This document shows, piece by piece, positions 20,286-23,944 of a stretch of DNA of 32,000 nt. The DNA is from Ktedonobacterales bacterium (GTDB lineage Bacteria; Chloroflexota; Ktedonobacteria; Ktedonobacterales; JADMIN01), in assembly GCA_030167145.1 (NCBI GenBank), contig CP126532.1, positions 4,410,001 through 4,442,000 on the forward strand. The letters run 5' to 3'. The notes under the pieces were generated by a model that was not told where the DNA came from, searched no databases, and was given only the letters and a program-made list of their open reading frames with translations. The translations under genes were made by a program, and so were the position numbers. Each line of letters starts with the position of its first letter. Within the stretch, counting starts at the first letter, position 1.

Positions 20286-21233
20286 CTAGACCGACGACAC
20301 TCGCGCGCGAAACACCCCAGGCGCGCAGCGCAGCGCCAGCGCAGCGCCATCCAGCCGCCACGGCGCGTCGAGCGTCGCCTCGGCGTCGAAATCCAGCGGC
20401 GCAACGAGCCGGAACTCGCGCTCAGGCGTGGCGATCACGATTGGCTGGCCGCGCGCCAGCACGCCCGAGGCGAAGTTATACGCCCAGCGCGCCGGGCGGT
20501 CTGGCGTGATGCGATAGTCCTCCGCGCTGGGCAGCGAATAGCTGGTCGCGCGGCTCTCGTCCTGGGGACGCGGCGCGAGCGTGCCAGCGGCCAGGCCCTT
20601 GAGGCTGGCAATGAGCAGCGGCCCCGCGACCTCAGCGCACATCCGCTCCAGCCGCGCCTCCGAGACGCCATCGCGCATGATGATCGTTTCTTGCGCGAGC
20701 ACTGGCCCGCTATCGAACCCCTCGTCCATCAGATGAATCGTCACGCCAGTCTGCGCGTCGCCGCGTTGAAACACCCAGAACAGCGGATCGGGTCCGCGAT
20801 TGTCTGGCAGCAGCGACGGATGGACATTCAGGCAGCCGAGCCGGGGCAGCCGTAGCACATCGGGAGGCAGGCGGCGCGGAAAGCATGAGACGCAGATGGC
20901 GTCGGGCGCGAACCCGGACAGCGTCGCCAGCGTTTCGCGAGCGCGCAAACGCGCCACCTCGAAGACCGGAACGCCAGTATCGGCGGCGATTTGGCGGATG
21001 CCGCGCTCCACCGGCAGCAGCGCCCGCGCTTTCCGGGACGCGCTCGCGGGTGGTGGAAGCTCGCGAGTCGGCGGCGTTTCCGGCCTCACATCGCCACTCA
21101 GCGCCGCCATCACCACCGCGCGCACATCAATACCCGCTCGCAGCAACGATTCCAGCGGCAGCGCCGACAGCACGCCCGACATGCCGAAGAACACGACACT
21201 CAATTGTGGCCGCAAAGCAGGCTCAGCGCTCAT
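20286..21233 (-). CDS. Formyltransferase-family protein (methionyl-tRNA formyltransferase-like paralog)
   Basis: 315 aa. LNVHPSLLPDNRGPDPLFW (the canonical HxSLLPxxRG motif), TGVTIHLMDEGFDSGPVL, and a C-terminal Fmt-like domain (PQDESRATSYSLP). The N-terminal third carries an atypical Pro/Ala-rich insertion in place of the usual TQPDRPxGRG segment. Confidence 0.75.
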   Translation of the reverse strand: MSAEPALRPQLSVVFFGMSGVLSALPLESLLRAGIDVRAVVMAALSGDVRPETPPTRELPPPASASRKARALLPVERGIRQIAADTGVPVFEVARLRARETLATLSGFAPDAICVSCFPRRLPPDVLRLPRLGCLNVHPSLLPDNRGPDPLFWVFQRGDAQTGVTIHLMDEGFDSGPVLAQETIIMRDGVSEARLERMCAEVAGPLLIASLKGLAAGTLAPRPQDESRATSYSLPSAEDYRITPDRPARWAYNFASGVLARGQPIVIATPEREFRLVAPLDFDAEATLDAPWRLDGAALALRCAPGVFRARVSSV

Positions 21234-21336
21234 TGTGATAGTGTCCTTCGCTCATCAGTGGCGGCGCACGATCTGCCGTCTGATATAGTATCTTACAGAG
21301 ACGACCGCGCGTACGGACGGAGAGGAGCGTGTTCTC

Positions 21337-21675
21337 ATGGCGCATATGGTAGATTGTGTGAAACTTGGCCGCAGGCTGCCGGGGCTGGAAAAGCCGCCCA
21401 TGCCCGGCGAGTTTGGCAAGCGCATTTACGACAACATCTCGCAGCAGGCGTGGGATATGTGGCAGGAACAGTCGCGGCTGATTATCAACCACTACGGCCT
21501 GAATCTCGGCGACCCGGACTCGCGCCAGGTGCTTCGCCAGCAGATGGAAGAGTTCCTTTTCGGCGAAGATGCGCGCATGCCCGAAGGCTGGGTGCCCGAA
21601 GGGCAGGGCGGCAAAGGCGGTGGCGCGCCCGCCAGCAAGGGTGGCGCTCCAGCGGCGGCCCCGCGCAAGAAATGA
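21337..21675 (+). CDS. yggX: Fe(2+)-trafficking / oxidative-damage protection protein YggX
   Basis: V.C.KLGRRLPGLEKPPMPGEFGKRIYDNISQQAWDMWQEQSRLIINHYGLNL.DP..R..L.QQMEEFLFGE aligns by eye along the whole of E. coli YggX. A Gly/Ala/Lys-rich tail follows. Confidence 0.9.
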   Translation: MAHMVDCVKLGRRLPGLEKPPMPGEFGKRIYDNISQQAWDMWQEQSRLIINHYGLNLGDPDSRQVLRQQMEEFLFGEDARMPEGWVPEGQGGKGGGAPASKGGAPAAAPRKK

Positions 21676-23162
21676 TGGACGTGCCCGGCGAGATTCTACT
21701 GGTTTCCTGCTACGAGCTAGGGCACCAGCCGCTAACCCTCGCTTCGCCGCTGGCGCTGTTGCGCGCCGATGGTTTCGCTCCCGTCTCGGTGGACACCTCG
21801 GTGAGCGAGCTGACGGACGAGGTGATACGCGCCGCGCGGCTCGTGGCGATCTCCGTCCCCATGCATACCGCGCTACGGCTGGGCGCGCGTGTAGCTGAGC
21901 GCGTCCGCGCAGCCCATCCATCGGCGCATATCTGCTTCTACGGCCTCTACGCCTCGCTCAACGCCGACTACCTCTTGCGCGAACATGCCGATTTCGTCAT
22001 CGGCGGCGAGTACGAGGCGGCGCTGCTGGGGCTGGCCCGCGCGCTTGCCAGCGGCGATGTATCGCCATCCGTCCCTGGCGTCCGCACGCGCGCAGTGGAT
22101 GCGCCACCAGTGCTGGCGCGCCTGCCATTCGTCCAACCGGAGCGCGCGAGCTTGCCGACAGCGAAGTCCTACGCGCATCTGGTGCGCGGCGACGAAGTGG
22201 TGCCAGCGGGCTATGTCGAGGCCAGTCGTGGCTGCCTGCACACCTGCCGTCACTGCCCGATCACGCCAGTCTACGGTGGGCGCTTCTTCATCGTGCCGCG
22301 CGGCGTCGTCCTCGCCGACATCCGCGCCCAGGTCGCGGCGGGCGTCCGCCACATCACCTTCGGCGACCCCGATTTCCTCAACGGTCCGGGCCACTCGCTG
22401 GCAATTGTCCGCGCGCTGCATGCCGAGTTCCCCGATGTCACCTTCGACGCGACGATCAAGATCGAGCATATTCTGGAGCGGCGCGACGTCTTCCCTGAGC
22501 TTGCCGCACTGGGCTGCGCGTTCGTTGTCTCAGCCGTGGAATCGCTGAGCGCGGAGGTGCTACGCCACCTGAAGAAGGGCCACACCCGCGCCGACGTGGC
22601 TGAGGCGCTGACGATTCTCGATGACGCGGGCATCCCGATGCGCCCAACCTTTGTCGCCTTCACTCCCTGGACCACTGCCCGCGCCTACGTGGACGTGCTG
22701 GACTTCATCGCCGAACATGACCTCATCGAACACGTAGACCCCGTGCAATACACCATCCGGCTGCTCGTCCCCCCTGGCTCCGCTCTGCTCGAAGAAGCTG
22801 ATGCCACCACCTGGCTTGGCCCACTCGATGAGCCAAACTTCACCTATCAGTGGGCTCACCCCGACCCGCGCATGGATGACATGCAGCGCGCGGTGGCGGC
22901 GCTGGTGGAGCGCGAGACAGTGGCGCAGCGCGACAACGCGAGCATCTTCGCGGCGATTCGCGCGCTCGCCGAAGAGATGCTCGGCGTCCCCGCCAGCGCC
23001 CGCACCTGGGGCACACAGCGTGGCGGCGTCGCGACGAAGCGCCGACCCGTCCCCCACCTCACCGAAGCGTGGTTCTGCTGAGCGGAACCCACCGCGGAGC
23101 AGTTGGCTCCCCACGATTCATCCACGCCAGTACATTGGCGTCCGTTCACCCCAGAATTATAG
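21672..23162 (+). CDS. B12-binding-domain radical SAM protein with an in-frame UGA (selenocysteine) in a C-U-A-E-P tail
   Basis: Start ATG 21672 overlaps the yggX stop (ATGA). MMDVPGEILLVSCYELGHQP... is a B12-binding-like N-domain, and SRGCLHTCRHC is the CX3CX2C rSAM cluster motif. The track ORF stops at TGA 23079-23081, straight after ...EAWFC. The next codons are GCG GAA CCC (AEP) and the frame stays open to TAG 23160-23162. If TGA is a true stop the CDS is 21672..23081. The 681-nt 5' extension in the track (from 20991) overlaps the fmt-like gene and yggX and is rejected. Confidence 0.8.
23082..23110 (+). promoter_or_regulatory. Candidate bacterial SECIS: two hairpins immediately 3' of the UGA
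   Basis: Hairpin 1: GCGG (23082-85), loop aaccca, CCGC (23092-95). Hairpin 2: GGAGC (23096-23100), loop aguug, GCUCC (23106-10). The second apical loop contains G and U and starts 19 nt after the UGA. Folded by hand only. Confidence 0.5.
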
Positions 23163-23470
23163 GGCGGCGGTGGGCTTGGTTGTTCACCGTCGTTCGTCGT
23201 TGTTCGTCCTGGGTGGGGTCGGCATTGGGGTCACAGATGTTTTGTTGGCTGCTGATGAAAAGTCCCCTGGATGGGCCCATCACTGCTTGACAGTGCCAGT
23301 CAATGCTGAATTTTTCACGCCTTGATATCGCCGTTTGCCTGCCAGTGTTTATGGGTGTTCACTCTGTTGGCTACCAATTAGGCTGTCAAGATTTATGCGC
23401 CTTGTTGAGATACGTGCTGAGATACGTCTAGAGTGCCTGCGAAATCTGAGTTCCCACCTGCTGGTGGTTA

Positions 23471-23944
23471 CTAAGGTATTTGTGCGCGAGTAGTGGGTAT
23501 CGCGAGCAATTGTGACTCTGGTACACCGAGTATCTGGGCTAACTTGGACCAAAATGCCTCGGTGGTCAGCCGCCCTTCCGAAGTGTCCCACGAGATGGTA
23601 CCGCATCCCTCCGGTGAGGCGACTGCCCTCATAAGAACCTGAGAACTGCGGGAAAATGTCAACTCAAATCTTAGGCCGAAATCAACGGGACAACTCACAT
23701 CACCCTTAGGCCCGAACGGCAAAGACGGAATGAGAGTATACAGAGATTGGACTAAAGTACTCGTTACGGTGCGATCAAGTGGGGCGGCTTCATTGCTTGG
23801 CAAGATAACGTAGCGCACAACGCGAAGGGACGAGGGCATAGCAGTGGAATGGCCAAGCACACTACTTGGATCAGTATGGCCGCATGCAGTCAACAAGATG
23901 GGCATGCAGATCATCAGGAGAACAACCCATCGCCGGGCTAACAT
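23471..23944 (-). CDS. Hypothetical lipoprotein (157 aa)
   Basis: ATG 23944 follows GGAGG (23955-23951) by 6 nt. MLARRWVVLLMICMPILLTACGH is a signal peptide plus lipobox L-T-A-C. No family recognised. It lies in a lower-GC segment. Confidence 0.65.
   Translation of the reverse strand: MLARRWVVLLMICMPILLTACGHTDPSSVLGHSTAMPSSLRVVRYVILPSNEAAPLDRTVTSTLVQSLYTLIPSLPFGPKGDVSCPVDFGLRFELTFSRSSQVLMRAVASPEGCGTISWDTSEGRLTTEAFWSKLAQILGVPESQLLAIPTTRAQIP

Follow-up and report, generated by a model that had tools for sequence, protein, structure and literature searches.

The window analysed here is a stretch of 32,000 nucleotides of a Ktedonobacterales bacterium (Chloroflexota; GenBank assembly GCA_030167145.1, contig CP126532.1, positions 4,410,001 to 4,442,000), numbered from its first letter. 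It contains a locus of three genes, one for an Fmt-like N-formyltransferase paralog that we call FmtL and, transcribed divergently from it, yggX and the gene for a radical S-adenosylmethionine (SAM) selenoprotein with a CUAEP tail, referred to below as the enzyme (Table 1). All three are members of a conserved module of four genes, composed of FmtL, YggX, the radical SAM selenoprotein and an ATP-grasp ligase that in this genome is encoded elsewhere. The coordinates, the ATGA overlap, the in-frame TGA and the insertion in the Fmt-like protein that had been described in a previous sequence-only reading of this DNA were all read again from the sequence and are correct. The TGA stop codon of yggX (21673-21675) overlaps the ATG of the radical SAM gene (21672-21674), and the same 4-nt overlap was found in at least 21 related loci, so that the overlapping operon proposed for these two genes is a layout seen in many genomes. 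Judging from this recurrence, the arrangement of yggX and the radical SAM gene is far from chance.

Table 1 Features of the FmtL-yggX-radical SAM locus (positions within the window)
Feature	Position	Strand	Basis
FmtL (Fmt-like N-formyltransferase paralog, two-domain), 315 aa	20286-21233	-	ORF list and sequence
Divergent intergenic region common to FmtL and yggX, 103 bp	21234-21336	.	Read from sequence
yggX (Fe(2+)-trafficking / oxidative damage protection protein), 112 aa, Gly-rich tail ending RKK	21337-21675	+	NF003817, PF04362
CUAEP-tail radical SAM selenoprotein, 496 aa with Sec470, TAG stop 23160-23162	21672-23162	+	NF040546
In-frame TGA read as selenocysteine (Sec)	23079-23081	+	Sec/Cys alternation, AEPT kept after

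Relatives of the locus were scanned with one genome per species, which gave 587 relatives, and the 80 most similar loci were analysed by tblastn and clustering of open reading frames (ORFs). An even sample of 301 Chloroflexota genomes was also surveyed, in which YggX matches above 95 bits were counted as strong. The counts for this sample include four unpublished genomes (G038 with all four genes, G173 with the ligase only, G227 with a weak YggX and G145 with a canonical fmt match only), whose removal shifts each count by at most 1. In 36 of the 80 loci yggX is found directly upstream of the enzyme gene and on the same strand, mostly in Chloroflexota of several classes and in one representative each of Gemmatimonadota, Polyangia and Latescibacterota. 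FmtL is the divergent gene in 26 of the loci, all of them from Chloroflexota and all with yggX. Within the 301 genomes we found the enzyme in 75, the ligase in 89, a strong YggX in 54 and FmtL in 50; all four genes coincide in 47, and 50 of the 54 genomes with a strong YggX also have the enzyme. The neighbourhood, which according to the sequence-only reading could have proved to be peculiar to one genome, is thus conserved. The three-gene module suggested there stands as a conserved unit, but it was incomplete, the ligase being its fourth and more widespread member.

The tightest association is the one between FmtL and YggX. FmtL is the divergent neighbour of yggX in 49 of the 54 Chloroflexota genomes with a strong YggX, and is present in a single one of the 247 without it. 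This adjacency is kept across at least ten Chloroflexota families and in several gene orders, at FmtL identities as low as 30-40%. Fisher tests gave very small p-values, but the relatives are not independent and therefore we rely on the recurrence over at least ten families and in rearranged gene orders. Rearranged loci still keep the genes together (in L086 and L087 as FmtL, YggX, ligase and enzyme), and wherever yggX is not beside the enzyme gene it is found between FmtL and the ligase (L086-L094 and L097). The near-obligate pairing of FmtL with YggX in Chloroflexota, and the fact that FmtL is not the housekeeping fmt, are new here; a description of the module was not found in the literature on CUAEP, on YggX with radical SAM enzymes or on DUF169/ATP-grasp/radical SAM combinations. 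Neither a methyltransferase nor an ars gene was detected among the annotated neighbour clusters (ten annotated by Pfam, the rest antisense to annotated genes). One apparent conserved neighbour of 159 aa, together with the clusters c12, c13 and c20, was dropped as a probable antisense artefact of the ligase and FmtL genes.

FmtL contains the domain Formyl_trans_N (PF00551, 93.6 bits against a cut-off of 26.1) but scores well below the cut-off of the fmt family (TIGR00460, 118.1 bits against 201.5). The Pfam domain Formyl_trans_C (PF02911) was undetected in FmtL, although its AlphaFold2 (AF2) model, with a predicted local distance difference test (pLDDT) value of 94.9, shows a C-terminal barrel. 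Its best Foldseek matches were Fmt (4iqf, 1fmt) and the formyltransferase domain of ArnA, equally good with template modelling (TM) scores of 0.74-0.76. Like these N-formyltransferases, FmtL has a two-domain fold, the catalytic Asn-His-Asp residues (N136, H138 and D174, invariant in 25 FmtL orthologs) and the SLLP motif, kept in the stretch ...LNVHPSLLPDNRGPDP... On the other hand, with the genome's own Fmt as comparison, a Pro/Ala-rich stretch is found at the place of the canonical Fmt basic loop RPDKPAGRGRQVAYAPVK, and this insertion varies in length and sequence among FmtL orthologs. In canonical Fmt the basic loop is believed to contact the tRNA acceptor end. The same alignment bears out what had been read from the letters, namely that the gene keeps the formyltransferase catalytic motif while the insertion replaces the canonical segment. 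The previous reading had left room for this gene being the only fmt of the genome. Actually, a canonical fmt is present at G000:C1:3810923-3811858, with 284.6 bits against the cut-off of 201.5, both Formyl_trans_N and Formyl_trans_C, and a position adjoining rlmN. This rules out FmtL as the housekeeping fmt and makes the gene in the window a paralog. Many database entries label FmtL as methionyl-tRNA formyltransferase, which is probably wrong.

The fourth member, the ligase, has the domains ATP-grasp_4, LAL_C2 and ATPgrasp_N, an architecture of the L-amino-acid-ligase type. Its best named matches were BacD and DdaF, L-amino acid ligases of dipeptide antibiotic pathways, with scores (37-73 bits) so far below the cut-offs of these families (840-850) that the module ligase represents a separate, unnamed subfamily. 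It is the commonest conserved neighbour of the enzyme across phyla (25 of the 80 loci) and accompanies it in 72 of the 75 enzyme-bearing Chloroflexota genomes. In this genome 488 kb separate the ligase gene (G000:C1:4919808-4921079) from the FmtL-yggX-radical SAM locus, and it is unlinked in the whole family to which the genome belongs. In its surroundings (L098, G000:C1:4913000-4928000) it has a glutamate dehydrogenase gene on one side and a PDZ/DUF512 radical-SAM-like gene on the other; a PTPS-family gene and a gene for a class III aminotransferase are also found near it, and no obvious pathway link emerged from these neighbours.

The enzyme belongs to NF040546, the family of CUAEP/CCAEP-tail radical SAM (seleno)proteins, with 710.3 bits against a cut-off of 500 for the 469-aa part before the TGA, and 725.6 bits when read through the TGA in the genome search. 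It has both the CxxxCxxC motif and the tail motif WFC-U-AEPT (23070-23093). In 75 full-length relatives no cysteine is invariant apart from the CxxxCxxC triad (C188, C192 and C195) and the tail C469; C13, C88 and C282 are near-conserved, none of them invariant, so these relatives give no sign of an auxiliary iron-sulfur (Fe-S) cluster. The AF2 model, built for an ortholog with a natural Cys-Cys tail (L051), had a pLDDT of 92.6. This value drops to 58 near the two tail cysteines, and disorder is predicted for the last 12 residues. In the two Thermogemmatispora loci (L035 and L036) the enzyme tail is longer after CCAEP, with two additional Cys-Cys pairs (…SCCG… and …GCCS…) ahead of a TGA; these could provide further pairs of ligands, or there could be a second Sec site. 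The only paper found that names NF040546 describes the family as uncharacterised and raises the possibility that the rare CU motif serves as a heavy-metal site, with no mention of YggX, ATP-grasp or formyltransferase neighbours of the family (10.1101/2022.07.06.499078). Few selenoproteins have a Cys-Sec pair like that of NF040546, and this family is also the closest relative of ArsL, which forms a carbon-arsenic bond.

Of the 75 full-length relatives, 55 have TGA and 20 have Cys at the position that follows the invariant tail Cys, with AEP(T) kept after it. In the window, the frame reads ...WFC-U-AEPTAEQ... with the TGA as Sec, and the genome carries tRNA-Sec, selA and selB. A hairpin is predicted at 23071-23089, in which the codons for W-F-C and A-E-P are complementary and form an 8-bp stem with the UGA in the loop. 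All eight stem pairs are present in 52 of the 55 Sec-type loci, where GCC is never the Ala codon, and in 13 of the 20 Cys-type loci; GCC is used in 6 of these 20. The stem may be part of the recoding signal, in a comparison in which the relatedness of the loci is uncontrolled. A second predicted hairpin (23096-23110; GGAGC, loop AGUUG, GCUCC), similar to a selenocysteine insertion sequence (SECIS) element, begins 15 nt past the UGA. The mean folding energy of the 45 nt past the codon was -14.5 kcal/mol in Sec-type loci versus -9.4 kcal/mol in Cys-type loci.

YggX is the sole copy in the genome and a clear member of its family over residues 1-88 (NF003817, 128.1 bits against a cut-off of 74; PF04362, 120.2 against 27), and its profile matches the solved structures 2mzy (122 bits), 1t07, 1yhd and 1xs8. 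It is a long-known stress protein, and to our knowledge its biochemical role has been open for two decades. In Salmonella, YggX overproduction rescues defects in thiamine synthesis that depends on Fe-S and radical SAM enzymes. The module YggX has the same fold family as the enterobacterial proteins (1yhd, 1xs8, 2mzy) and an invariant Cys7, with no new conserved motif in the fold; it differs from them in a longer, flexible and variable Gly-rich tail that ends in RKK and in its partners. The enterobacterial gene is found in the operon mutY-yggX-mltC, whereas here the partners are the radical SAM selenoprotein, FmtL and the ligase, not mutY. The statement that YggX usually stands alone was inexact, given that in Chloroflexota it is nearly always paired with FmtL. 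A complex prediction for YggX and the radical SAM protein (the L051 Cys-Cys ortholog pair, alignments A1 and A2) gave 0.16 versus a mark of 0.32, with no controls run, and speaks neither for nor against binding. In three loci (L029:5423-6004, L065:1951-2544 and L097:4906-5475), from Thermosporothrix hazakensis, a Ktedonobacteraceae metagenome-assembled genome and the genome G271, a single frame ahead of the module encodes two YggX domains, by tandem duplication or fusion. The last of these loci (G271:C1:151000-161000, in a 98% complete genome) is a cluster of FmtL, the double YggX and the ligase, flanked by genes for a 994-aa RCC1-repeat protein and an alanine-racemase-like/D-serine dehydratase. 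Furthermore, a second, weaker group of YggX-like proteins (49-70 bits, about 75 aligned residues) is present in 19 Chloroflexota genomes (e.g. G007, G032, G185 and G259). Two of them have an in-frame TGA; the group is not linked to the enzyme, which is found in 1 of these 19 genomes.

In several other phyla the enzyme is accompanied by other proteins. A protein with the domains Nfu_N and NifU is encoded directly after the enzyme in 12 of the 80 loci, from Acidobacteriota, a Planctomycete and a Nitrospira, and never together with YggX; against the NfuA family (TIGR03341) it scores 88 bits, below the cut-off of 269. NfuA-type carriers restore the clusters of radical SAM enzymes such as LipA and MiaB. 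This Nfu protein is not homologous to YggX, but holds next to the enzyme the accessory place that YggX has here. That two unrelated iron or Fe-S proteins occupy the same place is the best support for the idea of a helper, although it is circumstantial. A DUF169 protein follows the enzyme in 14 of the 80 loci, mostly from Nitrospirota and some from Planctomycetota, and the Blastocatellia loci add an Atg22-type transporter. In six loci of Nitrospirota and relatives (L044, L049, L052, L053, L062 and L064) the enzyme, the DUF169 protein and the ligase are found with a conserved protein of 144 aa, for which no Pfam or NCBIfam match was obtained. None of these companions (DUF169, Nfu, Atg22 or the 144-aa protein) was detected by tblastn in the genome studied here.

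The nearest characterised family of the enzyme is that of ArsL (RCCLKC tail), from the arsQML arsinothricin cluster. The match to its profile NF040542 (310.8 bits) is almost full length, covering positions 1-412 of 423, but stays under the cut-off of 450. With its single cluster ArsL generates a 3-amino-3-carboxypropyl radical by cleavage of SAM and joins it to arsenite; three C-terminal cysteines hold the arsenite, their removal or mutation abolishes activity, and cobalamin is assigned no role (10.1101/2024.02.01.577332, 10.64898/2026.04.29.721666). Both proteins combine one CxxxCxxC cluster with a Rossmann-like domain at the N terminus and a Cys motif at the C terminus. The product of ArsL is moreover an amino acid, which fits an amino-acid ligase as partner. 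The differences are also clear. In NF040546 the tail is C-U-A-E-P or C-C-A-E-P, with two ligands and often selenium, instead of the three cysteines of RCCLKC, a motif that the enzyme lacks. The module partners are the ATP-grasp ligase, YggX or Nfu, FmtL and DUF169; no arsM or arsenic resistance genes are found among its conserved neighbours, and the module is vertically conserved across whole families of soil bacteria.

With these comparisons in mind, the gene set probably makes an amino-acid-derived compound. We tentatively propose a joint model that we hold to be quite possible, though short of probable, in which the chemistry is drawn by analogy with ArsL. The single [4Fe-4S] cluster of the radical SAM enzyme would cleave SAM, and an alkyl fragment, most likely 3-amino-3-carboxypropyl, would be joined to a soft atom held on the flexible Cys-Sec pair of the tail to give an unusual amino acid. 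The ligase would then couple this product to another amino acid, and in Chloroflexota FmtL would N-formylate an amino group of the product. YggX, or Nfu in other phyla, would keep the enzyme loaded with its oxygen-sensitive cluster or repair the cluster. Such a role of YggX as Fe-S helper is plausible from the gene neighbourhoods, and it fits the mostly aerobic lineages involved, in which a [4Fe-4S] radical SAM enzyme would be at risk from oxygen. A more specific version, which we consider somewhat unlikely in its entirety, is a widespread and vertically inherited pathway of aerobic soil bacteria in which the selenoenzyme would form a carbon-heteroatom bond by adding the 3-amino-3-carboxypropyl radical to S, Se or a metalloid on the Cys-Sec arm. 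The resulting novel amino acid would be converted into a dipeptide and, in Chloroflexota, N-formylated, and the enzyme would be the first defined client of YggX.

Several observations weigh against the joint model. With an ArsL score under the cut-off and a tail with two ligands, the same chemistry stays an analogy. Arsenic genes are not among the conserved neighbours, and the vertical, family-wide conservation of the module looks more like housekeeping than like a sporadic antibiotic cluster. YggX is tied more tightly to FmtL than to the enzyme. Actually, the cluster of FmtL, YggX and ligase persists with the enzyme on another contig (G172 and G181) or far off on the same contig (G094), and also in G271, where the enzyme was undetected in the NF040546 search. 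A helper for the enzyme alone explains these facts poorly. The dedicated cluster supply or repair by YggX that had been suggested from the overlap gains circumstantial support from the exchange with Nfu but fits poorly with the tighter link to FmtL. Lastly, one Chloroflexota family has a ligase-enzyme operon (17/17, 16/17 genomes) and neither YggX nor FmtL, which indicates that ligase and enzyme are the core of the module and that YggX and FmtL are a dispensable accessory pair.

The tight FmtL-YggX pair and the enzyme-less cluster in G271 led us to retain an alternative, unlikely but the strongest of those considered, that makes YggX a working component of the pathway alongside FmtL (for example a carrier, a scaffold, a substrate protein or a donor of the metal or atom alkylated by the enzyme) and in which its link with the enzyme goes through the pathway rather than through Fe-S repair. 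It would account for YggX and FmtL being always divergent neighbours in those 49 genomes and for the FmtL-YggX-ligase clusters with the enzyme elsewhere (L088, L089 and L091-L094) or undetected (L097 of G271). The Gly-rich tail ending in RKK, the invariant Cys7 and the tandem YggX domains of three loci would also be consistent with it. However, the module YggX is ordinary over the whole fold, as its score to 2mzy indicates, and its tail is variable; the presence of Nfu in the equivalent place in other phyla fits a helper better, and one family keeps enzyme and ligase without YggX.

It is also conceivable, although we find it distinctly unlikely, that FmtL is a long-standing neighbour with an unrelated job that shares a promoter region with yggX, the true unit being YggX and the enzyme, with or without the ligase. 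The confinement of FmtL to Chloroflexota loci would agree with this, as would the ten yggX-enzyme loci that lack it, among which are the three non-Chloroflexota ones. A search of five enzyme-carrying genomes of other phyla gave no full-length FmtL ortholog, and no conserved operator was found in the intergenic region across four close relatives. Against it stand the adjacency kept through at least ten families and several rearrangements, with FmtL identity down to 30-40%, and the near absence of FmtL from genomes without YggX.

The sequence-only reading had called the enzyme B12-type and had considered radical methylation or rearrangement. That it belongs to the class B radical SAM proteins, which depend on cobalamin, and catalyses methyl transfer or rearrangement, with FmtL supplying or transferring a C1 unit to the same acceptor, now appears very unlikely. 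The N-terminal domain is of the Rossmann type and gives a weak match to B12-binding (PF02310), but its 29.0 bits are below the Pfam threshold of 32.1. The class B methylases HpnR, PhpK and the MCR glutamine methylase also match weakly (35-46 bits, the best being 46 against a cut-off of 650), and none of them approaches the 311 bits of ArsL, the best family after its own, whose transfer of 3-amino-3-carboxypropyl from SAM is described with no role for cobalamin. In the Foldseek search TsrM, OxsB, MgmA, CysS and TokK were found among the matches (TM 0.57-0.71), but the top one was AprD4, which has a Rossmann-like domain and is not known to use cobalamin. By family and domain scores the enzyme is thus not placed among the class B methyltransferases, and the two earlier terms are unsupported. 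In addition, most module versions in other phyla lack FmtL. Least probable of all is a modification of a protein or ribosomal peptide (a diphthamide-type transfer or RimK-type tailing) instead of a free small molecule: in the accounts available Dph2, the only other known generator of the 3-amino-3-carboxypropyl radical, modifies a protein, RimK/LysX-type ATP-grasp enzymes act on protein tails and match the ligase weakly (26-34 bits), and a small gene appears translationally coupled to the radical SAM gene from the overlap, but no conserved short precursor ORF is found among the neighbour clusters of the 80 loci, the ligase carries LAL_C2 and has the free-amino-acid ligases BacD and DdaF as best named matches, and Atg22-type transporters accompany the module in Blastocatellia.

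The module is directly testable, as cultured hosts with all four partners are available in Thermogemmatispora, Dictyobacter, Ktedonosporobacter and Thermosporothrix, and these partners can be expressed together. The conserved overlapping operon offers a concrete client to test for YggX.

The divergent spacer contains an extended -10-like element, TGATATAGT, at 21281-21289 on the forward strand, and GGAGAGGAG precedes the ATG of yggX. In the alignment with the four close relatives the spacer was poorly conserved except for the -10-like and the Shine-Dalgarno-like elements, and its only palindrome (21305-21320) is weak. The promoter scan found no -35/-10 pair in it, and no riboswitch was detected, the Rfam search of 21100-23500 giving one chance-level match only. 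The two annotated genes upstream are ctaA and a hydrolase gene. At the other end, a terminator-like hairpin (23162-23195) of 14 pairs followed by a T-rich run begins on the final base of the stop codon that closes the radical SAM gene, which fits the end of the operon after this gene.

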